Shown: in pieces, positions 3,128 through 43,668 of the stretch
Layout of the letters: each line of letters opens with the position of its first letter
Position numbering within the stretch: position 1 is the stretch's first letter
Assembly (NCBI GenBank): GCA_028713045.1
Contig: JAQTOY010000003.1
Location: forward strand, 1 to 45,585
Source: Candidatus Nanoarchaeia archaeon
GTDB taxonomy: Archaea > Nanobdellota > Nanobdellia > Pacearchaeales > GW2011-AR1
DNA: 45,585 bases
Direction of reading: 5' to 3'
The notes under the pieces: model-generated
Told to the model about the DNA's origin: nothing
The model's database searches: none
The model's input: the letters and a program-made list of their open reading frames with translations, nothing else
Made by a program: the position numbers and the translations under genes

Positions 3128-3230
3128 TTCTCTCTCTTTTCTCTCTCTTGAAAATGAGGAAAATAAAGGAAAAATTCTCATTTTCAAAATTAGGTGTAAA
3201 TATCATAAAATAATAAAAGATGAATAAAAT
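3128..3230 (+). repeat. 103-bp perfect direct repeat, copy 2
   Basis: Identical to 2953..3055. Confidence 0.9.
3148..3187 (+). promoter_or_regulatory. Leader stem-loop (copy 2)
   Basis: Same 11-bp stem as 2973..3012, shifted by 175 nt. Confidence 0.5.
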
Positions 3231-6200
3231 TAAGAAAGAGAAAGGCAGGAAAAAGAGAATAGTTTTGAAACCTAGTAGTAACTATTGTTTTTGCAAAAAA
3301 CAATCTGCAATAATATTATTAGCCTGCTTTATTGTCATGGTAATTGTAATTGTAGGTTTCTTTAATTTATCTTTTAATGATAATCCGGATACAAGTAATA
3401 TCAGTCAAATAAACATAATTAAAGCAGAGCATTTTGATTCTTCTAGAACTTCTTTAAGGGATATAACGGATTCCGTCATCCAGAAGGATGACCTATGGAG
3501 CCTGGTTAATCCTGGAGAATATGTAAGGGCTTATTTTGAAAAGAACCTTACAAATAAAAATGATATAACCCTTTTTGCAAAAAGCATTTCAATGGATGGG
3601 TCAAAAATAGAGGTATACAACAAAGATTCCAATGATCTGATTGCTGTTTTTAATAAAATCGGGAAAGAAAGCAACTATAAGACTTATTTGAGAGGAATAC
3701 CTGATGGAGAAAGTTATGATGCGTTTGATTTAAAGGTTTTGAACAATCCGGTTCAATTTGATTATATAACTGACCCTGAAACTCCTCCGATTCTTTCCTA
3801 CAATCTTACTGGAAATATTACTGTAGGTGGAGGAAATAATTTGGGTTTTCGCATGTCTGATGATAGGCAGTATTTGTATTATCTTATTAATAATCTCGCA
3901 AAGGGAGGAAGCAATTATCAGGCTGTAGTTTTAAAGCTTTATCCCAATAATGGAAGTCTTATTAAGAATATAAGCTATAATGTAGATTCAAATTCAAATG
4001 AAGATTCAAGGGCCATATATTATTACGATTCAGGGTATTATGTTGTTGGAGATTTCAATAGATACTCTCAGTACAGTTTAGGCCCTAGTTACTCAGGTTT
4101 TGCTTATATTCAAAGATATGACAGTTCAGACCAACTTAGTTGGCAAACTGATTTTAAACATCCCCAGCATTTAGACTGGGGTTCAAAATATGAATTACTG
4201 GGCTCTTCAATGGATTCCTCTGGAAACATTTACCTTAATGTTTATACAATAAATGATAGTGTTTCTCCAAGCATAATAAATTATACTTTGAATAAGTATT
4301 CTCCTAACGGAAGCAAGGTTTATACAACAGAACTAACTCCTAGAATAACCACTTTGACTAATATGGTTGCAACAGATTCTGGAGATGTTTACTTTTTAAC
4401 AAAAGCCTCTGGATGTAACGCTACTCTTGATGATATCAACTATATCTGCCTGATGAAATACAGCGGAGGGACTTATTCTTGGAATATAACTTATTATTTT
4501 AATGCTTTTAATGCTGCGGAATGGGCCTCAATGGATAGAATGCGTTTTTTTAATAATTCAATCTATGGAATCATCCAGGCAGGAGGGCCTGCTGCAGCAT
4601 TGTTTAAATTTGATTTAGATGGAAATCCTTTATGGAATATTTCTAATGGATATACTCAGGATTATGTCTTTGACAAATATAAAAATCTTTATGTGCTTGT
4701 TGGAGGGGCTTCAGAAACATTTGTCAGAAAACTTAATGAATCTATACCTGATTTTTGGAATAATTATACTTACCAGTTTTATTATAATGTAACTACATTT
4801 CAGCCAAAATATATGGTTATAGATAATTCTACAACCGATGTTCTTTATTTTAGCGGAACTAACGAGCTTGCATATCATCTTGTGAAATTTGCTCCGAATG
4901 ATACAACTCCGCCTATTGTTAATATAACTTATCCGGTAAATGGTACTCATTATGATATAAATGTTTCAACTATAAGTTATAGTTATTCAGATGACAATCC
5001 CGGATATTGCTGGTATACAATTGATGCAGGAGGGACTAATTCTAGTATTGTCTCTGCAGGAACAAGTTTTTCAGACGTAATCTCAATTGAAGGATCAAAC
5101 ACTTGGAGTGTAACTTGTAATGATACAAATGGATATATTGGTTCTTCAACAGTTACTTTTATTAAAGATTTAACTCCTCCGGACATTACTTTTAATTGTA
5201 CTCCAACAAGCGTAAATGTGAGTGAAACAATTAGCTGTTCTTGTACTGCGACAGATAGTCTTTCTACTCCTAGTGTAAGTTATACTGCAAACCCCAGCAC
5301 GTTAACTTCTGGAAGTTTTTCAACAACTTGCACTGCTACAGATAATGCTGGAAATTCAAATTCTTCATCTGTAAGTTATAGCGTAGTTAGTTCTTCGACT
5401 GCAGATCCGAATAGTGGCGGATATGGATCTGGAGGAACTTCTGTTAAATCTAAATCCTGCATTCCTAAGTTTGTATGTTCTCAATGGAGCAGTTGCACAG
5501 ATAACATTCAAACAAGAACTTGTTCTGATTCCTGCACTTCAAAGGTGAATATTGAGAAACAGAATTGTTCTTCAGCATTTGAACTATTAAAAATTTCTCG
5601 AAATTGTTCTGATTTATATCTTCCTGAGTCTAATGAAAAATTGGGTTCTGTCTGCACTTCTTGGAGCAGATGCAATGCCATTTATGGTTTGAAAGATGTC
5701 CTAAATAACAATCTATTTTTAAATGGTCAACAAAGCCGAACTTGCTTATCAAAAAAGGGCCTTTCTTTTGAAAAAAGATTTTGTGATTCAATTTGTGAAG
5801 CAAAATCTCCGTTAATAAGAAAAGTAGTCCGATGTTCTAAAGAGTATGTAGAAATATATGATTCAAATAAGCAGCTTATCTCTAGGCTAGAATTAGTTAA
5901 TGGAAGATATAAGCAGTTAAACATTAACCTTGATTTTATGAATTCTAATTATTGTGATTATTGTTATGATAAAGTAAAGAATTATGATGAAGATGGAGTA
6001 GATTGCTCAAATAAAATTGGTGGAAACTGCCCAATTTGTAAAACTCCCATAAACTGTTATAAAGATTTAGATTGCGCTCCATTAAAGGATTCATTCTGTA
6101 AGGATTCTAAATCTTGCATTGCGATTCCAAAATGTCTTAATCCTGGAACTGTAAAATCAAAGTGTTCTTATCAGGAAAGATGTACGAATTGTATTTCTGG

Positions 6201-7764
6201 ATGCGAAAACGGAAAATGTTTAGTAAAATGCAACAGTGATTTAGATTGTGGGAAAAATGATTTTATTGGAGATAAGTTTTGTAAAGGAAGAAATGTCTAC
6301 CAATTATTCGCAGATAACAGATGCTATTATCCGGGTTCTATTAATAGTAAATGTTCTAGCAGAAATTTTAGTATTTTAATTGAATCCTGTAAATCTGGAT
6401 GTGAAAACGGAAAATGTATAAAAAATTTTACAGAAGTTTGCTCTAAAAACGATGATTGTGGTATTAGTGGATACCACCACGAGTTATTTTGTAGGAATAA
6501 TTATGTAATCAGAAATTATACAAATTTTATTTGTTTGCTTAATAAGGACCTTAGTGGTTATTGTAGTAATTCAACTCGATCAATAATATGGCAAGTTTGT
6601 TCTTATAATTGTAAGGATGGTAAATGCATAGATAAGCCTATCTGCACGATTGATAATGATTGCAAATCAAAACAAATATGCCTAAGTGGAAAATGTAAGA
6701 ATATAACTTGTAGTTCTGATTCAGAATGTGAAGATAATAATCCTTATACCGAAGACAAATGTTCTAATCCTAATACTTTGGAAAGCTTTTGTATGTACGA
6801 CCCAATAAAATGCATTAAAAATTCGGATTGCGGTAAGGATGTTTATGGGGATGTATTTTGCTCAGATAATCTTGTTGTAAATAATCATTTAGTTTTTAAG
6901 TGCAACGGAAAAGGGTCTAAAAGTTACTGCACAAATTCAACAAATATTGAAAAAAGACAAACTTGTCCTGATGGATGCTTAAATGGAATTTGTATAGATA
7001 TTGTTTGTAAGAATGACTTTGAATGTGATGACAATAACTCTTATACTGAGGATAAATGTTTAAATCAAAATACTCTCAAAAGTTTTTGTGTTCATAATGA
7101 AATAAAATGCATCTTTGATTCTGATTGTGGAGAATCATCGAGCAAGAAATATTGTTTAGACTCGCAAATTTGCTCTGCGAATGTTTCGTATTATTGCAAC
7201 AATTCTGGAACGATTAATTCCAAATGCATTATTAGAAACCTTACTGAATGCATAATTTGCGAAAATCAATGCCGAAACGATTCCTGTATTCCATTTGATA
7301 TTAAAAGATCATTTGTTCTTACAGATAATGTCCCTATTGGAGATATCTTGCCAGAAGAACATTGTATTTCAGAATTAATTTGTAATGAATGGAGCGAATG
7401 CAGGGATGGGATAAGAACAAAGTCCTGTGTTAATTCTTGTACAAGAATGACCTTGGAAGAATGGGAAAGTTGCGATATAAATGAAATCTATAATATTAAA
7501 CCAGAAATTATTCAAGGAGAACTATTTGTAAGCAAATATCAATTTAATTTTATTTGTTATCTTCTTTTAATAATGGGGGTATTATTGTTTTGTCTTGCTC
7601 TTATTCTCTTGGCAAATAAAAATAAAATAGAGTCTGGAAAAAAACAGGATAAACCTAAAAAATCCCTGATATTTTTTTGGGTAAAGAGAAAAATAAGAGG
7701 TAAAGATAAAAAGGCTTTAGTATTCTTTTGGATTAAAAGAAAATCCAAGAAGTTTTCTAAATAA
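3220..7764 (+). CDS. Giant (1514 aa) Cys-rich modular surface protein with N-terminal signal anchor and C-terminal TM plus Lys-rich tail
   Basis: N-terminal TM 'AIILLACFIVMVIVIVGFF'. Propeller-like 'xxYxxG' repeats. HYR/Ig-like stretch 'DTTPPIVNITYP...ATDNAGNS'. About 5 copies of a roughly 60-aa module 'C.sDlDCG...FC...C..pGs.nSKC...C..GCENGKC'. Two copies of 'C..D.EC.DNN.YTEDKC.N.NTL.SFC'. Three CxxWxxC..R.C modules. C-terminal TM 'FICYLLLIMGVLLFCLALILL'. Confidence 0.85.
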   Translation: MNKIKKEKGRKKRIVLKPSSNYCFCKKQSAIILLACFIVMVIVIVGFFNLSFNDNPDTSNISQINIIKAEHFDSSRTSLRDITDSVIQKDDLWSLVNPGEYVRAYFEKNLTNKNDITLFAKSISMDGSKIEVYNKDSNDLIAVFNKIGKESNYKTYLRGIPDGESYDAFDLKVLNNPVQFDYITDPETPPILSYNLTGNITVGGGNNLGFRMSDDRQYLYYLINNLAKGGSNYQAVVLKLYPNNGSLIKNISYNVDSNSNEDSRAIYYYDSGYYVVGDFNRYSQYSLGPSYSGFAYIQRYDSSDQLSWQTDFKHPQHLDWGSKYELLGSSMDSSGNIYLNVYTINDSVSPSIINYTLNKYSPNGSKVYTTELTPRITTLTNMVATDSGDVYFLTKASGCNATLDDINYICLMKYSGGTYSWNITYYFNAFNAAEWASMDRMRFFNNSIYGIIQAGGPAAALFKFDLDGNPLWNISNGYTQDYVFDKYKNLYVLVGGASETFVRKLNESIPDFWNNYTYQFYYNVTTFQPKYMVIDNSTTDVLYFSGTNELAYHLVKFAPNDTTPPIVNITYPVNGTHYDINVSTISYSYSDDNPGYCWYTIDAGGTNSSIVSAGTSFSDVISIEGSNTWSVTCNDTNGYIGSSTVTFIKDLTPPDITFNCTPTSVNVSETISCSCTATDSLSTPSVSYTANPSTLTSGSFSTTCTATDNAGNSNSSSVSYSVVSSSTADPNSGGYGSGGTSVKSKSCIPKFVCSQWSSCTDNIQTRTCSDSCTSKVNIEKQNCSSAFELLKISRNCSDLYLPESNEKLGSVCTSWSRCNAIYGLKDVLNNNLFLNGQQSRTCLSKKGLSFEKRFCDSICEAKSPLIRKVVRCSKEYVEIYDSNKQLISRLELVNGRYKQLNINLDFMNSNYCDYCYDKVKNYDEDGVDCSNKIGGNCPICKTPINCYKDLDCAPLKDSFCKDSKSCIAIPKCLNPGTVKSKCSYQERCTNCISGCENGKCLVKCNSDLDCGKNDFIGDKFCKGRNVYQLFADNRCYYPGSINSKCSSRNFSILIESCKSGCENGKCIKNFTEVCSKNDDCGISGYHHELFCRNNYVIRNYTNFICLLNKDLSGYCSNSTRSIIWQVCSYNCKDGKCIDKPICTIDNDCKSKQICLSGKCKNITCSSDSECEDNNPYTEDKCSNPNTLESFCMYDPIKCIKNSDCGKDVYGDVFCSDNLVVNNHLVFKCNGKGSKSYCTNSTNIEKRQTCPDGCLNGICIDIVCKNDFECDDNNSYTEDKCLNQNTLKSFCVHNEIKCIFDSDCGESSSKKYCLDSQICSANVSYYCNNSGTINSKCIIRNLTECIICENQCRNDSCIPFDIKRSFVLTDNVPIGDILPEEHCISELICNEWSECRDGIRTKSCVNSCTRMTLEEWESCDINEIYNIKPEIIQGELFVSKYQFNFICYLLLIMGVLLFCLALILLANKNKIESGKKQDKPKKSLIFFWVKRKIRGKDKKALVFFWIKRKSKKFSK

Positions 7765-25540: not shown

Positions 25541-25969
25541 ATGAAAATCATATTGGACACTAATTTTCTTGTTTATTGCTCAAAGAACAAGATTGATTAT
25601 AGGGAAGATATTGGAAATCTTATCAATGAAGGTTTTGAACTGGTTGTTCCTGAACAGGTTGTTGAAGAACTGAAGAAAATAAGCCAGAAGCCTAAAGAGA
25701 AACATTCAGGATTTTTAAAAAAAAGAAATCCCCGATTCCGGAAAACAACTGCAAGAGATAGGGATGCTGCAAATCTAGCATTGCAGCTGCTTGATTTTAA
25801 TAAAATAAAAATTGTTAAAACAACAGGCAGGAATGTTGATGACGCAATTATTAATTTGGCTGAAAAAGATAAAAAGAACATTGTCTGCACTCTGGATCGG
25901 GAGATGAGGCATATTCTTGGAAGGGTTATTTTAATCAATAAATTCAAAAGATTAATGCTGACGAAATAA
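25541..25969 (+). CDS. Fcf1/Utp24-like PIN-domain endoribonuclease (archaeal)
   Basis: 'KIILDTNFLVY', 'VVPEQVVEEL', 'DDAIINLA', 'VCTLDREMR'. Confidence 0.65.
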   Translation: MKIILDTNFLVYCSKNKIDYREDIGNLINEGFELVVPEQVVEELKKISQKPKEKHSGFLKKRNPRFRKTTARDRDAANLALQLLDFNKIKIVKTTGRNVDDAIINLAEKDKKNIVCTLDREMRHILGRVILINKFKRLMLTK

Positions 25970-25999: not shown

Positions 26000-27070
26000 C
26001 TATCTTGATTCTGAAGAGTATTCTGGATTAAAATGTTCCCTTAATTTTCCCAATCCTTCACTTTCCAATTGCCTAATTCTCTCTCTTGTTAAATTTAGCA
26101 TTTTTCCAACCTCTTTTAATGTTTTTGGATTGTTTCCATTAAGTCCAAGGCGATGTATGAGAACAACTCTTTCTCTCTCATCAACCCCTCCCGAATTCAA
26201 ATATTTCCATGCTAATTCGTAATCCATAGCTTTTTCTACTAATTCAGATGGAGATTCTGTTAATGTGTCTTCAATACATGAATCATAATCAGTATCTTCC
26301 TCAGAATCAAAAACACCTAATCTTTGGCGATTTCTTGTTCTTATTAAAGTCTTTACAGGATCCTCATACTTCTTTTTTCTTTTCTTTTTCTTTACTTTAT
26401 TTCCATAACGAGTGCTATATCTTTCTAGAAGTTCCTCATCTGTCGGTTCCCTTCCAAGTTCAATTTTTAGACATCCCTCAAGTTGATCTATTTCTTGGCT
26501 AATTTGATGTGCATAGCTAGGTAAATGCAAATCATCTCTTTCACTTTGCAATCCCCGGGTTATTGATTGTTTTATCCACCCACTCGCATAAGTTGTGAAT
26601 CTATATCCTCGCCTCCAATCAAATTTTTTTGCGGCAATCATCAATCCTATATTTCCATAACCTGTTAATTCTTCTATTTCTACTCCAGTTCTCTCGCTGT
26701 AACGTGTTGCAATCCTAACAACAAGAAGTAAAGCAGATTGGGATATTCCTTGTTTTGCTTCGATACATTCTTGAAGATTTTCTCTTCTATGCCCGGCAAG
26801 TTTTTCTCTTGCTTGGATTAATTCTTCACTTTCCTCTTTAGGCGATTCTTTTCCAGCTTTTTCAGCCTCGAGATTATTAATCTCTCTTAGTAATCTTCTT
26901 TCTATTGAGTGGTATTGTTCAACTATTTTACCAAATCTTTGATTTCTTTCATAGGTTTCAGCCTTAAAACAAGTTCTTTCAGTATAACTGCCGCTTGGTC
27001 CTGATGCAAAAGGTGTTTGGTTTACCTGAGCTAAATAAAGCCCAATATCAAAAGGATTTCTTTCAGCCAT
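26000..27070 (-). CDS. Bacterial-type sigma-70 family RNA polymerase sigma factor
   Basis: Region 2: 'LVVRIATRYSERTGVEIEELTGYGNIGLMIAAKKFDWRRGYRFTTYASGWIKQSITRGL'. Region 3: 'LGREPTDEELLERY'. Region 4.2: 'TLKEVGKMLNLTRERIRQLESEGLGKLR'. Start set at ATG 27070 ('MAERNPF') by the TATA spacing. Confidence 0.9.
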   Translation of the reverse strand: MAERNPFDIGLYLAQVNQTPFASGPSGSYTERTCFKAETYERNQRFGKIVEQYHSIERRLLREINNLEAEKAGKESPKEESEELIQAREKLAGHRRENLQECIEAKQGISQSALLLVVRIATRYSERTGVEIEELTGYGNIGLMIAAKKFDWRRGYRFTTYASGWIKQSITRGLQSERDDLHLPSYAHQISQEIDQLEGCLKIELGREPTDEELLERYSTRYGNKVKKKKRKKKYEDPVKTLIRTRNRQRLGVFDSEEDTDYDSCIEDTLTESPSELVEKAMDYELAWKYLNSGGVDERERVVLIHRLGLNGNNPKTLKEVGKMLNLTRERIRQLESEGLGKLREHFNPEYSSESR

Positions 27071-27091
27071 TAAAAAATTCATAAAGAAACC

Positions 27092-27196: not shown

Positions 27197-27793
27197 ATGT
27201 TCTATATAGTTGAAGTTCACGATTATGTAAGGGTTGAGCCAAGATTATTCGGCCTTAAAACTAGCGACGCTGTTGCAAAACAGCTGCAGGAAATTTATAC
27301 AAATTATCATGACAAAGAAATCGGAGAGGTTATAGGAATCATATCCATATTGGAAGTTGGGGATGGAGTGATAATTCCAGGGGATGGAGCTGCATATTAT
27401 AATTCCAAATTTAAATTGCTTGCATTCAAACCAGAAATGAATGAATTAGTTTATGGAATAATTGATGAAATAACTGATTTTGGAGCCTTTATCAATCTTG
27501 GGGTAATGAAAGGAATGATTCATATAAGCCAAACAATGGATGATTATGTAAGTTTTTCAACAACAAATACTCTTTTGGGAAAAGATTCAAAAAAAGTTTT
27601 GAAGAAAAAAGATGAATGTTTAGCTAGAATAGTTGCAGTATCTTATAAAGGAGATAATCCTAAAATAGGGCTTACAATGAGGCAGCCAGGATTGGGAAAA
27701 TTGGAATGGATAAAAGAAGAAAAGAAAAAAGCAAAGGCTGCTGCAAAAAAATCAATGAGAGCTGAAAAAGCTGAGAAAAAGGAGAAGAAATAG
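27197..27793 (+). CDS. rpoE: DNA-directed RNA polymerase subunit E' (Rpo7/Rpb7 homologue) with Lys/Ala-rich C-terminal tail
   Basis: 'MFYIVEVHDYVRVEPRLFG', S1-like 'GIIDEITDFGAFINLGVMKGMIHISQ', tail 'KEEKKKAKAAAKKSMRAEKAEKKEKK'. Confidence 0.85.
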   Translation: MFYIVEVHDYVRVEPRLFGLKTSDAVAKQLQEIYTNYHDKEIGEVIGIISILEVGDGVIIPGDGAAYYNSKFKLLAFKPEMNELVYGIIDEITDFGAFINLGVMKGMIHISQTMDDYVSFSTTNTLLGKDSKKVLKKKDECLARIVAVSYKGDNPKIGLTMRQPGLGKLEWIKEEKKKAKAAAKKSMRAEKAEKKEKK

Positions 27794-27794
27794 A

Positions 27795-27980
27795 ATGGCA
27801 AAAGAAAAAGCATGTAAAACATGCAAAATGATATATGAAGGGGAAAGCTGTCCTAGCTGTGGAAAGAAGGAAACTTCTGAAAGTTTTAAGGGAAAGATTG
27901 AAATTACAAATCCTGAAAAATCTGAATTAGCTCAAAAGTTGAAGATTAATAAGCAAGGGATTTATGCGATTAAGCTGTAA
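27795..27980 (+). CDS. spt4: Transcription elongation factor Spt4 / RNAP subunit E''
   Basis: Zn ribbon 'CKTCKMIYEGESCPSCG' and 'GIYAIKL'. Starts 1 nt after the rpoE' stop. Confidence 0.85.
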   Translation: MAKEKACKTCKMIYEGESCPSCGKKETSESFKGKIEITNPEKSELAQKLKINKQGIYAIKL

Positions 27981-28001
27981 ATTAAATCTAAAAAGAGGAA
28001 A

Positions 28002-28214
28002 ATGAAATCTAGAATGAAATCTGAAAGTTGCAAATCCGGACGCAAATGCGGTTGTGGCTGCGGAGGAGCTATCTATGGCTTAGGATTTATCGGAGCTGTA
28101 ATTTATTTCGTCTCAACTGCGCCCAGTTTCTGGATGGGAGTTCTAGGATTTTTAAAGGCTCTTGTCTGGCCAGCATTCCTGGTTTATGAACTGCTTAAAT
28201 TTTTAGGAGTTTAA
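28002..28214 (+). CDS. Small membrane protein with Cys-rich N-terminus
   Basis: 'CKSGRKCGCGCGG' followed by two TM helices 'AIYGLGFIGAVIYFV' and 'GFLKALVWPAFLVYELL'. Confidence 0.55.
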   Translation: MKSRMKSESCKSGRKCGCGCGGAIYGLGFIGAVIYFVSTAPSFWMGVLGFLKALVWPAFLVYELLKFLGV

Positions 28215-28292
28215 TTAAAAGTTTCTTGACACAAGGATTTTTAAACCTTCAATATTAATAGTTTTTATCAATTTATTGATAAATTACATAAG

Positions 28293-28652
28293 ATGGAAAT
28301 TAAAAAAAATACTAAAAATGAATTATTCAAAAGGTATGAAGTCTCTATTATTTTGGAATCTGATAAGAATCCAAGTTTTTCTGAAGTAAAGAAAAAGCTT
28401 TCAGAAAAATTTTCAAAACCTGAAGATTCTATTGACGTTTATAATATAAAGGGAAAATTCGGAAGAAACACTTTTTTGATAAAAGCTTATGTTTATGATT
28501 CAAAAGCGGATTTTGAAAAAGCTGTTCAGAAAACCAAAAAGCAAAGGGATGCTGAAAAAAAGGCTGCTGAAGAAGCTAAGAAAGCAGAGGAAGAGGCAAA
28601 GAAAGCTGCTGAAGAAGCTAAGAAAGCAGAAGCAGAAGTAAAGAGCGAATGA
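28293..28652 (+). CDS. rps24e: 30S ribosomal protein S24e with Ala/Glu/Lys-rich C-terminal extension
   Basis: 'NELFKRYEVSIILES...PSFSEVKKKLSEKF', 'IKGKFGRNTFLIKAYVYDS', tail 'AEKKAAEEAKKAEEEAKKAAEEAKKAEAEVKSE'. TATA-like 'TTTATCAA' is exactly 22 nt upstream. Confidence 0.85.
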   Translation: MEIKKNTKNELFKRYEVSIILESDKNPSFSEVKKKLSEKFSKPEDSIDVYNIKGKFGRNTFLIKAYVYDSKADFEKAVQKTKKQRDAEKKAAEEAKKAEEEAKKAAEEAKKAEAEVKSE

Positions 28653-28681
28653 TTAATAAACTAACGAAATAAATATTTAAC

Positions 28682-28882
28682 ATGGCAAAGGGAGAAAAGA
28701 AAGGAAAGAAACCACATAAGAACAAGCCTACTTCAAAGAAATACAAAATGTATAAAATTGAAGGAGATACTATCAAAAGAGAAAGAAACTGTCCTAGATG
28801 TGGTGCAGGAGTTTTTTTGATGAAGACCGATAATAGATTATATTGTGGAAGATGCCATTATACTGAGTTCTTGAAAAGATAA
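28682..28882 (+). CDS. rps27ae: 30S ribosomal protein S27ae
   Basis: 'CPRCGAGVFLMKTDNRLYCGRCHYTEF'. 'TTAATAAA' is exactly 22 nt upstream. Confidence 0.85.
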   Translation: MAKGEKKGKKPHKNKPTSKKYKMYKIEGDTIKRERNCPRCGAGVFLMKTDNRLYCGRCHYTEFLKR

Positions 28883-28897
28883 ATTTTTCTTATTAAT

Positions 28898-29071
28898 ATG
28901 AAATGCAAATGTGGACAGGATATAGAGATTAGAATGGGTTCAAAGCTGATTGCAAAAGGTTGCAGGATTTTAACAGCAATGACTGTTATTGTTACAGCTC
29001 AATGCGAGAAATGCGGAGCCATGTTCCAGGTTCCAATAAAAAACAATGGGGCCATAATAAAACAGGATTAA
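28898..29071 (+). CDS. Candidate 57-aa Cys-pair (zinc-ribbon-like) micro-protein
   Basis: 'MKCKCGQD...CEKCGAMFQVP'. Sits 15 nt after rps27ae, has no TATA of its own, and is below the ORF-track size cut-off. Confidence 0.35.
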   Translation: MKCKCGQDIEIRMGSKLIAKGCRILTAMTVIVTAQCEKCGAMFQVPIKNNGAIIKQD

Positions 29072-29255
29072 ATCTTTTATTAATGTTATGTAATTTATGA
29101 ATAGTAGTTAAGAGATTTTTATAAGTATCATTAATGATGTTGAGTTTAATGCGCTTTTAACTAACTTGCTAAAATACTACCTCCTTTATTCTACAATAGA
29201 TTATTGAAAAAATTCATGACTAAACCTATATAAACTTTAATTTCTTTAGTTAATA

Positions 29256-29663
29256 ATGAAAAGGGTGAATAAAAAGATTATTAAAAAAGAAGTTAAAAAG
29301 AAAAAAATAGGAAAATGGCTTTATTGGAGCCCTAGAATACTATCAATTTTATTCTTACTATTTTTGGCATTGTTTTCTTTGGATATTTTTGATGGATGCA
29401 ATGATTTTTTTACATGTTTATTAGGATTGTTTATGCATAATATTCCGGTGTTAATTTTAGCAGTACTTTTATGGATATCCTGGAAAAGAGAATTAATCGG
29501 AGCAATAGTCTTTGCTCTTGCAGGATTGCTGTATATTGCTCAATTATTATTTAATTCAGCTATGGATGGCTTTCAATGGTATTATTTAGTTTGGAGCCTT
29601 CAAATTGCAGGTCCTGCCTTTGTTGTTGCTTTTCTTTGGTATTTGAATTGGAAGAGAAAGTGA
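29256..29663 (+). CDS. Integral membrane protein (4 TM)
   Basis: TATATAAA (29227-29234) is exactly 22 nt upstream. Hydrophobic 135-aa ORF. Confidence 0.6.
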   Translation: MKRVNKKIIKKEVKKKKIGKWLYWSPRILSILFLLFLALFSLDIFDGCNDFFTCLLGLFMHNIPVLILAVLLWISWKRELIGAIVFALAGLLYIAQLLFNSAMDGFQWYYLVWSLQIAGPAFVVAFLWYLNWKRK

Positions 29664-29748
29664 ATATAAAATAAAGAACTATTCAAATCGTGCTAGATTT
29701 TAGACTGGAATTTTGAAATACTTCTTTTTTTCTTAATTAAGCATGAAA

Positions 29749-29865
29749 TTAATCGCCTCTAGCACCTCTCTTTTTTGCTCTCTTCCCTGAAGAATCAAAC
29801 TTAGTTGAATATGACTAACCTCCCTTTGATTTAGGGTCGGTGTCGATAATTATAAACCCTAGAAG
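29749..29865. repeat. 117-bp perfect direct repeat, copy A
   Basis: Manual alignment with 30355..30471 shows no mismatch, and the flanks differ immediately on both sides. Visibly more G/C-rich than its surroundings. Ends 2 nt from the stop of the orphan ORF. Confidence 0.9.
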
Positions 29866-29867
29866 GT

Positions 29868-30176
29868 TTAATCTTGTGGATTTAAGTGAATATCATATGA
29901 TTGTTTATGTGATTCTAAAACAACTAATCCTTCTGATGTACAAGAACTGAAATGTAAATATTGGCAGATGGTTCTAGTGGCCCTTGGACTTGCTTTTAAT
30001 CTTTTTATTCTTCCTTTTGAAGGAATTATGACAAGAGTGCCTATTTTATCTGTATGAAGATTTAATTCTGTAGTTTCTTCTAAATATAAATCAAAAGCAT
30101 CTAGTAAAATATCTAAAGAATCTCTCATAGCTAATTCATTTTCTCCAGAGCTTAAACTATAATTTACTTTAGGCAT
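29868..30176 (-). CDS. Orphan ~102-aa protein enclosed by the 117-bp repeats
   Basis: The ORF is open to TTG 30233. ATG 30176 is preferred because TTTATAAA at 30204-30211 lies 28 nt upstream; ATG 30203 directly abuts the TATA. No motif recognised. Confidence 0.45.
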   Translation of the reverse strand: MPKVNYSLSSGENELAMRDSLDILLDAFDLYLEETTELNLHTDKIGTLVIIPSKGRIKRLKASPRATRTICQYLHFSSCTSEGLVVLESHKQSYDIHLNPQD

Positions 30177-30354
30177 TTCTTTTTGATTATCTCTATATAT
30201 CATTTTATAAATCCTCGATGATTTTGAATTCAAAATTTAATCCTTTTTAAATCTTCTTATAAAAATTTTCAAAGAAGTTATAATAAAGTAGTGCCGTATT
30301 TTAGAACGGATTGCTGTTATCTTAACTCTTTGATTTCTTTAAAGAATATGATGT

Positions 30355-30471
30355 TTAATCGCCTCTAGCACCTCTCTTTTTTGCTCTCTTCCCTGAAGAA
30401 TCAAACTTAGTTGAATATGACTAACCTCCCTTTGATTTAGGGTCGGTGTCGATAATTATAAACCCTAGAAG
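30355..30471. repeat. 117-bp perfect direct repeat, copy B
   Basis: Identical to 29749..29865. Period 606 bp. Confidence 0.9.
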
Positions 30472-30595
30472 AATCGGTGTCATATAAAAATTATACGTCC
30501 TGACTCTTCTGGGGAAAAAGAGGTGATAATAATTCTAGAATTCCTATATATTTAAATCTTTCGGTTTTGTCGTAACTGGTAAATGACATCACTTT

Positions 30596-30616
30596 AAGCG
30601 CTCCTTTTTAGCGCTT
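30596..30616. other. GC-rich 7-bp hairpin AAGCGCT-(7 nt)-AGCGCTT in a non-coding stretch
   Basis: Perfect stem in an otherwise AT-rich 266-bp spacer, followed by a T-rich tract on the + strand. A TATA-like 'TATATATTTAAAT' lies about 40-50 nt upstream. Confidence 0.3.
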
Positions 30617-30708
30617 TCATTTATAGATTTTATTATAACGCAGCCTATTTAATATTATCTATTATTTTTTGTAGTAGAGAGTAGCAAAAATATAGGTTTT
30701 GTGATAGA

Positions 30709-30716
30709 TTTATAAG
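30709..30716 (+). promoter_or_regulatory. TATA box TTTATAAG, 22 nt before scpA ATG 30738
   Basis: Exact spacing. Confidence 0.55.
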
Positions 30717-30737
30717 TTCGTTAGGTTATTCTAAAAT

Positions 30738-31757
30738 ATGGATTTTAAGAAGTTTTTGCCGGAGAATAATGAGGTGGCAAGCTCATCTGATGAATCTGAT
30801 GAGAATTCAAAAAATGTTGAAAAATTGAACCTTAATCAATTTTATGATGTTATTTCAGGAAGGAATCCTGACTGGCAGGTTATGATATTTGAGCTGATTA
30901 ATTCAGAGCAACTTGACCCTTGGGATATAGATATTATTATATTAACTAAAAAATATTTTGAAAAATTAGAGGAAATGCAGGAGGCCGATTTTTATATTTC
31001 CAGCAAGATTTTACTAGCTGCAGCTCTTCTTTTAAGAATAAAATCTGAATTCCTTTTGAACAGATATATAAAAAGTATAGATGAGATACTTTTTGGCAAA
31101 AAGGAAGAGAATAAATATGTTCTTGAAAAAATTGAGATTAATGAAGATGAATTGCCGTTATTAATTCCTAAAACTCCTCTCTCGAGATTAAAAAAAGTAA
31201 CTTTGCCAGAATTATTGATGGCCTTGGACAAGGCGATTAATACAGAATCAAGAAGAATAAAAAAAGAAGTCGCAGTTGTGAGGGCAAAAAAACTTTCAGA
31301 AGTTGATTTTCCAACTTTTAAAAGAGTTGATTTAAAAGATAGGATTAAGCATTTTTATGCAAGAATTCTTACTTTCCTTAAGAAGAAAGCAACAGAGGAT
31401 GAACAAAATGTCAATAAAATCGGATATTCTAGCATGGTTGGAAAAGACAAGGAAGAGAAGATTTCCTGTTTTCTTCCGCTTCTTCATTTAAGTAACACTC
31501 AGAAATTATGGCTTGAGCAGGAAAAACATCTTGATGAGATTTATATCTATTTATATGAATATTTTCAAAAAAACCGTGGTAAATTTATGGATGAGCTTGA
31601 GAAAGACATAGAAGAGATGAAAGAAGAAATTGGATTAGAAACTTCAGAAAAACTGGAGAATCTGGATGAATCTGAGGAAATAAAAAAAGAATTAAAAAAA
31701 GAATCTGTTGACGAGAAAATTGACAATATCACGGGTTTTAAGAATGAGGCGTTTTGA
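30738..31757 (+). CDS. scpA: Segregation and condensation protein A (kleisin) homologue
   Basis: 'LDPWDIDIIILTKKYFEKLEEMQEADFYISSKILLAAALLLRIKSEFLL', with an acidic N- and C-terminus. Confidence 0.7.
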   Translation: MDFKKFLPENNEVASSSDESDENSKNVEKLNLNQFYDVISGRNPDWQVMIFELINSEQLDPWDIDIIILTKKYFEKLEEMQEADFYISSKILLAAALLLRIKSEFLLNRYIKSIDEILFGKKEENKYVLEKIEINEDELPLLIPKTPLSRLKKVTLPELLMALDKAINTESRRIKKEVAVVRAKKLSEVDFPTFKRVDLKDRIKHFYARILTFLKKKATEDEQNVNKIGYSSMVGKDKEEKISCFLPLLHLSNTQKLWLEQEKHLDEIYIYLYEYFQKNRGKFMDELEKDIEEMKEEIGLETSEKLENLDESEEIKKELKKESVDEKIDNITGFKNEAF

Positions 31758-41889: not shown

Positions 41890-43668
41890 TTATTCTAGAT
41901 TATCTCTAAATCTTTTATATAATTTTAATAATTGTGTTGCAGTTTTATGTCTTCCGGCTCTTCTTACTAAATTTGCAGTTTCGCATGCAATAACCTCTGC
42001 TAAGGGCTGAAAAAGTTCTTGCCGGTTTCTTATCCTAGGCCCTCTAACAGTTCCGAGCATTGTTAATAAGGTTTTTCTTCTTAAAGAAGGTCTTTCTTTC
42101 TGTAAATCATCAAGCATTTCTCTCCTATATTTATCTCCCAATGCATCCCCTAATAATTCGTATCTTTCTGGAGTATAATTTTTTAGAAGATATTCATAAA
42201 CTGCTCTTGCTTCTGGCATTTTTAACATTTCTGGATCTAAACAATTTTTTAGAACCTTTAACTCAACAGGCATTTGCAGTAATCTGACTATAAACATTGT
42301 TTCAAAATGATTTCTTCTTTTGAGATTTCTCATTCTTTGATATAAGTAGCCGGTCCCCAATATTACTGATTCAATTACATCCTTAGGCATTCTTAATTTG
42401 CGCTCTAATCTTGATAGGTATATTCCGAGAGCATGCTCTGGCATTTGCGCCAAGTCTGGAGATACTCTTTCTAAAAATGTCTGACAATCTTCAGGAACAG
42501 TCAGATCTAGTCTAGTTTTGTCCTTTAAATCATATTTTCCTAATTGACAGGCAACATAATAATCAAAAAGGGATTTTCTTTTTTCTTGAGCCAAAGATTG
42601 TGATAAAGCTGTTAAATCCCCGGTCTCGCGGATTAAATCTGCAGGATCTTTGCCCTCTGGTAAAAAACAAATTCTTGAATTTGCTCTTGCTATTAGATTC
42701 TTAGAAACATTAAATGCTCCTTGTCTTCCTCCTTTGTCGCCATCAAAAACCAAGACTATTGGATATCCTGGATATTTTAATTTTAATTTTTTAGTTGATT
42801 CTACGGGTAAGGCAGTTCCACATGGAGATAAGATGTTATCAAAGCCATGTTGTTTTGCAAGCATGATATCAACATAACCTTCGACAATAAAGATTTCTTT
42901 TTCTCTTTTTATTGCTTCATCAGTTTTTTCATCATAACCGAAAAATACATCACTTTTTCGGTAAACAAGAGTTTCAGGGGAGTTTATGTATTTTGCAAAA
43001 TGATCTCCTATTTCTGGAAAGATTCTTCCTGCAAAAGCAATGGTTCTGCCCTTTTCATTTATTATTGGAATAATAATTCTTCCTCTAAATCTGTCATAAA
43101 CTCTTCCCGATGAAGGTGATTTTCCTAAAATTCCTGCTTGTTCCAGTATTTCATTTCCAAATCTTTGAACTGTAGTTGTCTGCAAAAATTGCCATTGGTC
43201 AGGAGCATATCCTAGCCCGAATCTAGCTATTGACTCATCAGTTAAACCTCTTTCTCTTAAATATCTTAATGCATCAGGATTTCTTTGTAATTGTTGTTTA
43301 TACACTCTTTGTGTTTCATCTAAAGCTTCTAAAATACCTTCTCTTGATTTCTTTTTTTGTGTTAAGGCTGGATCATAATCATCTTGAATCGGAATGCCTG
43401 CTCTATCCGCTAACATGAATAATGCTTCTTTGAATTCAACACCTTCTTTTCTCATAACCCAGCTGAAAACATCTCCTCCAACATCACATACCCAACATCT
43501 ATAGGTTTGTCTTTCTGGATTAATTTGCAAAGAAGGTTTAGTATCATCATGCCATGGGCATAATCCATTATAATGTCTTCCGGTTCTTCTTAGATTGATT
43601 TCTGCCCCTACGAGCTCAACAATGTCACTTGCTTTCCTCACTCTTTCTTTTAAATCATTACTAACCAT
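41890..43668 (-). CDS. dnaG: Bacterial-type DnaG primase (CHC2 zinc finger + RNA-polymerase core + Toprim) with unassigned ~200-aa C-terminal region
   Basis: 'CPWHDDTKPSLQINPERQTYRCWVCDVGGDVFSWVM', 'IFIVEGYVDIMLAKQHGF', 'VLVFDGDKGGRQGA'. Confidence 0.9.
   Translation of the reverse strand: MVSNDLKERVRKASDIVELVGAEINLRRTGRHYNGLCPWHDDTKPSLQINPERQTYRCWVCDVGGDVFSWVMRKEGVEFKEALFMLADRAGIPIQDDYDPALTQKKKSREGILEALDETQRVYKQQLQRNPDALRYLRERGLTDESIARFGLGYAPDQWQFLQTTTVQRFGNEILEQAGILGKSPSSGRVYDRFRGRIIIPIINEKGRTIAFAGRIFPEIGDHFAKYINSPETLVYRKSDVFFGYDEKTDEAIKREKEIFIVEGYVDIMLAKQHGFDNILSPCGTALPVESTKKLKLKYPGYPIVLVFDGDKGGRQGAFNVSKNLIARANSRICFLPEGKDPADLIRETGDLTALSQSLAQEKRKSLFDYYVACQLGKYDLKDKTRLDLTVPEDCQTFLERVSPDLAQMPEHALGIYLSRLERKLRMPKDVIESVILGTGYLYQRMRNLKRRNHFETMFIVRLLQMPVELKVLKNCLDPEMLKMPEARAVYEYLLKNYTPERYELLGDALGDKYRREMLDDLQKERPSLRRKTLLTMLGTVRGPRIRNRQELFQPLAEVIACETANLVRRAGRHKTATQLLKLYKRFRDNLE

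Follow-up and report, generated by a model that had tools for sequence, protein, structure and literature searches.

The stretch of DNA analysed here (the window) comprises all 45,585 nucleotides of contig JAQTOY010000003.1 of the Candidatus Nanoarchaeia archaeon assembly GCA_028713045.1. Its archaeal genes include those for S24e, S27ae, ScpA, an archaeal-type GluRS, PheRS and an Rpp30-like protein; the closest relative in genome databases is a Candidatus Pacearchaeota metagenome-assembled genome (MAG), referred to as L003, whose ScpA is 86% identical, followed by other Pacearchaeota/Nanoarchaeia MAGs. The subject of this work is a pair of perfect 117-nt direct repeats (copies A and B) that lie between a gene for a DUF7670 membrane protein and scpA, enclose a single orphan gene and, at copy B, run into a conserved structured RNA gene. 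The features of the locus, in window coordinates, are the following:

28682-28882, plus strand: rps27ae (Pfam Ribosomal_S27, E = 2.4e-15), the upstream landmark
29256-29663, plus strand: DUF7670 membrane-protein gene
29664-29748, plus strand: left flank of copy A, homologous to that of copy B but diverged, with the hairpin GTGCTAG-ATTTTAGA-CTGG at 29690-29708
29749-29865, plus strand: repeat copy A, the distal, attL-like junction, which ends with the displaced first 12 nt of the RNA and is followed by the 3' end of the orphan gene
29786-29797 and 30392-30403, plus strand: CCCTGAAGAATC, a fossil-like motif within the repeat that resembles nt 4-16 of the RNA (CCCTAGAAGAATC)
29832-29865 and 30438-30471, plus strand: arm-N9-core, TAGGGTCGGTGTC-GATAATTAT-AAACCCTAGAAG, which includes TAGGGT/ACCCTA and TCGGTGTC
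29854-29865, plus strand: displaced 5' fragment of the RNA, AAACCCTAGAAG, the putative attachment-site core at the end of copy A
29868-30203, minus strand: orphan gene P0001 (111 aa; 102 aa from an alternative start at 30176), the only cargo
30250-30354, plus strand: left flank of copy B, part of the 489 bp that separate the copies, with the hairpin GTGCCGT-ATTTTAGA-ACGG at 30291-30309
30355-30471, plus strand: repeat copy B, the proximal, attR-like junction, which runs without a break into the intact RNA gene
30460-30592, plus strand: structured RNA of ~133 nt (covariance model R1, 138.8 bits, E = 2e-27), its first 12 nt within copy B
30596-30616, plus strand: terminator-like hairpin and T-run, directly after the 3' end of the RNA
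30738-31757, plus strand: scpA (Pfam SMC_ScpA, E = 5e-15), the downstream landmark

Copies A and B agree at all 117 positions (100% identity); their starts are 606 nt apart, which leaves an interval of 489 bp, and their flanks mismatch at the very next base on both sides (a at 29748 versus t at 30354; g at 29866 versus a at 30472). This geometry had been described in the initial annotation and was confirmed in the sequence, as was the higher G/C content of the repeat (39.3%, compared to 26.6% between the copies, 29-31% in the flanks and ~31% over the whole contig). The two inverted repeats reported for copy A, CCCT(7)AGGG at 29822-29836 and TAGGGT(18)ACCCTA at 29832-29861, were likewise recovered where they had been placed, together with the triple occurrence of TCGGTGTC, which is found at exactly three sites in the window (29837, 30443 and 30474) against 0.2 expected. 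A 43-mer query with 3 mismatches allowed (chance expectation 0) detected no third copy of the repeat in the contig. No copy was found in IMG/VR, the phage and plasmid records held no counterpart of the whole locus, and no tRNA or split tRNA was detected in or near the repeat. The 8-mer GTTTAATC bounds the 489-bp interval at both ends (29866-29873 and 30353-30360), and the TTAATC of these terminal copies also opens TTTAATCNCCTC, a box seen again in relatives within their upstream modules.

The sequence into which copy B runs is conserved far beyond this contig. Four relatives fetched via ScpA share a block of ~135 nt upstream of scpA, with ~80% DNA identity also in cases where the ScpA proteins are no more than 56-66% identical; this block begins in the last nucleotides of copy B and contains a 26-nt invariant stretch, a 22-mer of which was found in at least 120 contigs from JGI and ENA metagenomes. 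Among the matches listed, scpA follows the block in 103 of 125 loci, and rps24e-rps27ae precede it on the same strand. A covariance model (R1) built from 30 sequences matched 63 of the 65 other loci among the matches listed. In the R1 alignment, which is fitted to the model so that its pairing counts lean towards the structure, 91% of cells pair, compared to 45-57% when the 3' partners are slid; compensatory changes were observed in 16 of the 32 pairs (184 cells), and none of 500 shuffles reached the observed values. The seed alignment alone displayed the same covariation behaviour. Invariant U-G and G-U pairs, together with the lack of any match on the minus strand, assign the RNA to the plus strand.

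The 5' part of this RNA forms a long hairpin, CCCUAGAAG.../...CUUCUGGGG (CCCUNGAAGAGGC ... GCCUCUUCUGGGG); in the middle a helix, AGAGGU/AYCUUU, encloses a variable hairpin, and the 3' part holds the hairpin UGUYGU/AUGACA. The invariant core is CUCUUCUGGGGAAAAAGAGGUGAUAA, and the RNA includes an invariant GAGGUGAU that we take to be complementary to the 3' end of archaeal 16S rRNA. The third TCGGTGTC site, at 30474, corresponds to nt 15-22 of the RNA. No Rfam 15 family for the RNA was found in the window or in 13 related loci, and a literature search returned no description of a ~133-nt RNA of this kind; the only Rfam match in the window is a tRNA-Trp, with nothing relevant at E <= 10 across 29500-30800. 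Neither the repeat nor the neighbouring RNA could be matched to a tRNA, a split tRNA or an Rfam family. C/D-box, H/ACA guide, 5S, signal recognition particle and RNase P readings of the RNA were rejected by eye: an ACA lies inside a covarying stem, a closing helix is missing, CR-I/CR-V and helix-8 motifs are absent, and Rfam gave nothing at E <= 10. A tiny open reading frame (ORF) after GAGGUGAU was also rejected, as most sequences have no AUG there and the region covaries as a helix.

The repeats and the RNA overlap. The last 12 nt of the repeat, AAACCCTAGAAG, are nt 1-12 of the RNA; in copy B the RNA continues from them intact, and in copy A the same 12 nt are followed by unrelated sequence. 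Copy B plus the RNA has the form of a right attachment junction (attR), and copy A, which ends at nt 12 of the RNA and passes into other DNA, that of a left one (attL). The 3' part of the repeat, TTTAGGGTCGGTGTC-GATAATTAT-AAACCCTAGAAG, is laid out as an arm, a 9-nt spacer and a core. Conservation elsewhere is limited to roughly the first 60 nt of the repeat and its last 12-37 nt, which match modules upstream of the RNA and the element-borne attachment sites (attP) described below. The motif CCCTGAAGAATC within the repeat also occurs upstream of the RNA in other loci; its local alignment to the RNA start scored higher than all of 2000 shuffles (0/2000 as high), which suggests that the repeat carries a fossil of the RNA start from earlier rounds of recombination at the site.

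The sequence to the left of each copy was also compared. The left flanks of copies A and B are homologous and roughly 60% alike, and a three-way alignment shows a sharp jump to 100% at the repeat boundary. The left flank of copy B is orthologous to the sequence upstream of the single copy of the repeat region in L003 (86% over 107 nt). Both copies are preceded by the same module: a hairpin of the form GTGC-stem-ATTTTAGA-stem, a T-rich spacer and AAGNATGA. In other loci, BLAST detected modules upstream of the RNA that are similar to the sequence left of copy A. Across loci, the hairpin (GTGC-stem-ATT(T/C)TAGA-stem) has covarying 4-bp stems and a conserved 8-nt loop, and in 62 of its 70 occurrences, within 126 loci among the matches listed, it lies upstream of the RNA on the same strand; two of the other eight are of the GTGC type. 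It is present in the attP modules of integrase-bearing elements as well, and may act as a terminator, as an RNA leader or as an accessory site for recombination.

A full-length element integrated at the same RNA is found in the MAG of Ca. Nanoarchaeia STD1_118 (L006). Here, an island of 5 kb is bounded by a left junction (...AATATAAACCCTAGAGGAG|TTGATAAG), in which a hairpin module is followed by ...AATATAAACCCTAGAGGAG, and a right junction, in which a second hairpin module leads into the intact RNA; the identity between the two junctions is ~17 nt (TATAAACCCTAGAGGAG). The first gene of the island, beside attL, encodes a 417-aa tyrosine integrase (PF00589, E = 6e-19; phrog_1), and it is followed by a gene for a rolling-circle Rep_1 protein and by four ORFs without an assigned function. 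Homologues of the integrase (P0004 and P0005, 53-64% identical) are encoded on element-like contigs that carry no copy of the RNA. Neither this integrase nor the RNA core was found in viral contigs.

Three of the element-like contigs (L129, L130 and L132) carry what appears to be the element's own side of the reaction. Directly upstream of the integrase gene, each has a hairpin module, GGGTT(G/T)..GTC, 9 nt, AAACCCTAGA(A/G)(A/G)G and then element sequence, as would be expected of an attP directed at the 5' end of the RNA. L129 (Logan SRR22808010, 11,393 nt) has a 27-nt terminal overlap and is probably circular; besides its tyrosine integrase and attP-like module it encodes a 916-aa ORF, and it is a candidate plasmid or virus of Nanoarchaeota. 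Prim-Pol and NikA-like genes were found in L129 and L130, while L132 and other contigs hold mostly small unannotated ORFs. The attP of L132 reads GGGTTGGTGTC-N9-AAACCCTAGAGGAG, and the arm-N9-core layout of the window matches it as well as the attP of L129 and the attR of L006. In a BLAST comparison, positions 79-115 of the repeat (its 3' 37 nt) were 81% identical to the attP of L132 with the same spacing, and the same core is present in attL and attR of L006 and in the attP sites of L129 and L132. These matches in layout indicate that TAGGGT(18)ACCCTA and the repeated TCGGTGTC, first noticed as hairpin and motif, are arm and core elements of a recombination site.

Loci of other relatives display the same layout at the 5' end of the RNA. 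The rps27ae-to-RNA interval varies from 49 nt to 6.7 kb and is shorter than 500 nt in about half of the 51 distinct loci among the matches listed. In many of the occupied loci, the right-hand copy of a direct repeat ends within the first 5-16 nt of the RNA. Such repeats measure 111 nt (98% identity) in L029, 65 nt (88%) in L004, 175 nt (86%) in L075 and 63-172 nt (97-100%) in L053 and L064, the latter with three copies; three copies are also found in L034 (75%). Same-strand duplicates of the first 11 nt of the RNA were detected 0.6-5 kb upstream in the window and in nine fetched loci, exact in nine cases and with one mismatch in L029; a shuffled control with one mismatch allowed gave 9 matches in 1.5 Mb.

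The inserts bounded by such repeats have cargo of a kind usual for mobile elements: ParE-type toxins with partners (L004, L029), HicB/HicA (L049, L052) and a PBECR2 RelE-like nuclease pair (L074, L067, L052). An NYN-domain protein is encoded in L025, and the 5.8-kb insert of L011 carries an AbiEii-type nucleotidyltransferase toxin (PF08843, E = 1e-23) immediately upstream of the RNA, at -1320 to -397 relative to the RNA core. Related genomes hold the same cassettes in changed order. No integrase was found in the larger inserts of L011, L058 and L112. By collecting toxin-antitoxin and defence cassettes, the site forms a variable accessory locus in otherwise reduced genomes.

In a strain pair of a species other than that of the window, a breakpoint falls at the 5' end of the RNA. 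L069 and L123 are 99.8% identical over 11.8 kb from the 5' end of the RNA onwards, and upstream of it they have no detectable homology; L069 is also 100% identical over 3.5 kb to the shorter L074. The nearest relative of the window, L003, shows an unoccupied arrangement: it carries the repeat region once and lacks the orphan gene, as well as a stretch of ~38 nt that includes the arm. It is too distant to define a precise empty site.

We favour, with moderate confidence, the explanation that the two repeats are the junctions of a tiny mobile-element remnant or of a non-autonomous cassette, located at the 5' end of a conserved RNA gene. Among the possibilities listed in the initial annotation, this corresponds to att-like ends of a mini-cassette, with the addition that the attachment site would be the start of the RNA. 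According to this model, the first ~12-17 nt of the RNA (AAACCCUAGARG) and the arm upstream of them would serve as a chromosomal attachment site for elements with a tyrosine integrase, in those Pacearchaeota/Nanoarchaeia genomes in which the RNA lies between rps27ae and scpA. The elements would carry, beside the integrase gene, an attP composed of the hairpin module, the arm, the 9-nt spacer and the same core. Integration would then rebuild an intact RNA gene on one side (copy B and the RNA) and leave on the other a displaced duplicate ending at nt 12 of the RNA (copy A). Since the 489-bp insert holds one orphan gene and no integrase, it would be either an element remnant left by internal deletion or a non-autonomous cassette moved in trans, and the perfect identity over 117 nt would reflect either an event that took place recently in a single population or gene conversion at a later time between the junctions. 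The repeats, the RNA with its overlap with copy B, the full-length element of L006, the attP-carrying contigs and the strain-pair breakpoint are observed in the sequences; from these we infer the arrival of the window's own insert by this route, and likewise the ancestral copy and any present mobility.

Several observations weigh against this explanation. An integrase or recombinase gene was found neither between the repeats nor among the 47 ORFs scanned in the 45.6-kb contig. The insert is incapable of moving on its own, and none of the fetched elements contains a relative of the orphan gene. The junction identity is 117 nt here as opposed to ~17 nt in L006. Moreover, the element-type arm is present in both copies, whereas a first integration at a naive site should leave it only in attR, as seen in L006. 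Together, the 117-nt block and the doubled arm are not fully explained by one canonical integration into a naive site; they call for gene conversion or for a further event at a site that an earlier element had altered. The sequence adjoining the RNA at 30250-30354 resembles the chromosomal flank of L003, the reverse of the geometry in L006. Finally, the repeats of L074 and L049 end ~70 nt short of the RNA, and L022 and L110 (also L024 and L039) have simple tandem duplications of the upstream region that carry no cargo, indicating that the region is duplicated by other routes too.

Such other routes are the basis of an alternative scenario, in which slippage or unequal exchange duplicated the upstream module (hairpin, spacer and repeat) in place, with a pre-existing orphan gene left between the copies, and recent gene conversion homogenised 117 nt. 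It agrees with the diverged but homologous left flanks with their sharp boundary to full identity, with the missing integrase in the window and with GTTTAATC at both ends of the 489-bp interval, and the cargo-less duplications in the four loci just named provide it with precedents. It leaves unexplained, however, why the duplicate ends at nt 12 of the RNA, a position close to attL of L006 at nt 14, to the attP cores of free elements at ~nt 12-14 and to the breakpoint of the strain pair at ~nt 1-4, and it offers no account of an arm-N9-core in both copies that L003 lacks. In addition, the interval between the copies is itself not duplicated, and for the same reason the simple recent tandem duplication proposed in the initial annotation does not fit. 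We regard duplication in situ as rather unlikely, if the most serious of the competing accounts.

An artefact of assembly or of a mixed population was also considered: coexisting variants, or an empty-site chromosome and a circular or tandem form, may have been joined so that the arrangement flank-A-insert-B-flank exists in no single genome. The perfection of the repeat agrees with this, and so does its length, 117 bp being near the k-mer sizes of metagenome assemblers; furthermore, an integrated insert and an empty site plus a 606-bp circle give the same de Bruijn graph. An independent view of the reads is provided by a Logan contig (run SRR22315508) which is identical to window positions 27533-29778 and stops exactly 30 nt into copy A. 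Logan graphs are built with k=31, and such a graph stops there when a 30-mer has two different predecessors; the contig end accordingly implies two different left-hand contexts of the repeat among the reads, and it speaks against the local assembly artefact that had been suggested earlier. The orphan protein, on the other hand, has no record in the Logan assembly of this run under any of its three start codons. An assembler path through the locus needs all four junctions in the reads, and independently assembled relatives show the same architecture. An artefact is in our view improbable. A second Logan contig (L002) starts at 30504, inside the 26-mer that is invariant across the five genomes first compared; because of this position, the break there is likely to reflect several DPANN species in the sample that share the 30-mer, and not this locus. 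A 30-mer of the RNA core shared in this way would tend to break contigs at this locus quite generally.

A third competing account treats the repeat as functional in its own right: it would be a small RNA gene present in two copies, with a promoter on the minus strand, or else, as the initial annotation had also suggested, an antitoxin RNA of a type III-like system with the ORF as its toxin. The TATA-like octamer on which the promoter reading was built, TTTATAAT on the minus strand (ATTATAAA on the plus strand, at 29849-29856 and 30455-30462), is present in each copy as described; the octamer, however, belongs to the plus-strand conserved core, abutting the start of the RNA and being conserved in relatives and in attP, and the reading as promoter and non-coding RNA was not sustained. 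Folding of the 117-mer, which had been recommended as a check, gave no stability above shuffled sequence as RNA of either strand or as DNA (z = -0.5, -0.2 and -0.95), and there is no Rfam match. The G/C content of the repeat above its surroundings and the frequency of toxin-antitoxin genes at the site in relatives can be cited in favour of a functional unit. Nevertheless, the conserved parts of the repeat match upstream modules and attP, not a transcript. In ToxIN and AbiQ, the type III systems with which a comparison suggests itself, repeated non-coding DNA likewise adjoins a small gene, here within a toxin-antitoxin-rich region; those systems, however, have a tandem array of ~36-nt units upstream of the gene, whereas the window has two copies, 606 bp apart, that flank it. 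The ORF has no similarity to ToxN/AbiQ and no Pfam or PADLOC match, and the repeat is accounted for by the attachment site. The type III proposal finds no support, and we give the functional-unit reading very little credence in either form.

Integrative plasmids and viruses of archaea and bacteria commonly enter tRNA and tmRNA genes by means of a tyrosine integrase (pNOB8/SSV-type elements, tRNA- and ssrA-linked islands), and the favoured explanation, junctions of an element or cassette at the RNA, belongs with them in several respects. Direct repeats flank the insert, one of them in an intact small-RNA gene and the other in a partial copy of it; attP carries a fragment of the gene, so that the gene is rebuilt; the integrase lies beside attL in L006; and toxin-antitoxin and defence cargo as well as decayed remnants accumulate at the site. 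It differs in that the target is an unannotated RNA of ~133 nt with no Rfam family, that the crossover is at the 5' end of the gene, for which reason the element must supply the upstream region, and that in the window the insert has no integrase and the identity block reaches ~105 nt upstream of the gene. That elements integrate at specific sites in small-RNA genes is well known; the target RNA and the cassette-collecting behaviour appear to be new. As a recombination hot spot of tyrosine-integrase elements, the 5' end of the RNA extends the small-RNA-gene rule beyond tRNA and tmRNA. AAACCCUAGARG and the arm upstream of it also provide a sequence handle for mobile elements in a group where few are known.

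A more tentative possibility is an integron-like capture platform, based on an RNA gene and an ordinary tyrosine integrase. In that scenario, the RNA would represent a new class in archaea of the Pacearchaeota/Woesearchaeota type, its 5' end would be the docking site of integrase-bearing plasmids or viruses, and small integrase-less cassettes, among them toxin-antitoxin pairs and orphan genes like that of the window, would be captured, shuffled and lost in trans, with neither IntI nor attC involved. We put this forward as possible, though short of an even chance. Integron cassette arrays and clusters of attC sites lacking integron integrases (CALINs) have been reported in Archaea (PMC9668308). 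As in those, the same cassettes are reordered between related genomes and most arrays have no adjoining integrase. Unlike in integrons, the DNA fold of the 117-mer (z = -0.95) includes no extended imperfect or end-to-end hairpin, and RYYYAAC/GTTRRRY cores are missing, the boundaries being TTAATCG... and ...CTAGAAG|GTTTAAT. The recombinase of L006, for its part, matches the generic Phage_integrase model and sits within the element beside attL, and the array is anchored on an RNA gene and not on attI. The structured RNA, conserved in more than a hundred DPANN contigs, has no Rfam family.

The gene between the repeats was examined separately. Its stop codon (29868-29870) is 2 nt from copy A and its possible starts (30233, 30203 and 30176) are 122-179 nt from copy B, in agreement with the ~120-180 nt given earlier. 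A search of 5.8 billion proteins returned no homologue of P0001, and an exhaustive HMMER search one distant homologue, P0002 (115 aa), which is encoded among unannotated genes of another archaeal MAG. The two are 30% identical over their full length and share a CQxLHF motif (library E = 2.8e-4; pairwise E = 6e-15), and this full-length match indicates that P0001 is likely a real, very rare protein. Apart from a sub-threshold DUF1892, no Pfam match was obtained at E <= 0.1, and there was no match to PHROG, PADLOC or PDB. The structure prediction recommended in the initial annotation produced a model and no fold assignment: a two-sequence AlphaFold2 run gave an alpha/beta fold with a predicted local distance difference test (pLDDT) score of 66, and neither of two AlphaFold2 runs yielded a significant PDB fold match with Foldseek. 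A role as toxin or antitoxin would be only a guess. For the annotation of the contig, the favoured explanation means that the repeats are to be entered as junction scars and not as a gene, and the ORF between them as accessory cargo.

In L127, the only other genome with a homologue of P0001, a 26-nt direct repeat (AAAAACCCNTYGGAAAAAGAGTTCTG, 92% identical, at 4674-4699 and 5565-5590) flanks the gene pair to which the homologue belongs; the repeat lies 13-21 nt upstream of the first gene of the pair and of the gene after it.

Elsewhere in the window, two genes on the minus strand are of bacterial type, one sigma-70-like (26000-27082; Sigma70_r2, r4) and the other encoding a DnaG-type primase (41890-43668; CHC2 zinc finger, Toprim). 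Three large plus-strand ORFs (3220-7764, 51-1373 and 1392-2678; 1514, 440 and 428 aa) have no Pfam match at E <= 0.001. A PIN-domain protein (PIN_9/PIN_4), possibly a VapC-like toxin, is encoded at 25541-25969 on the plus strand.

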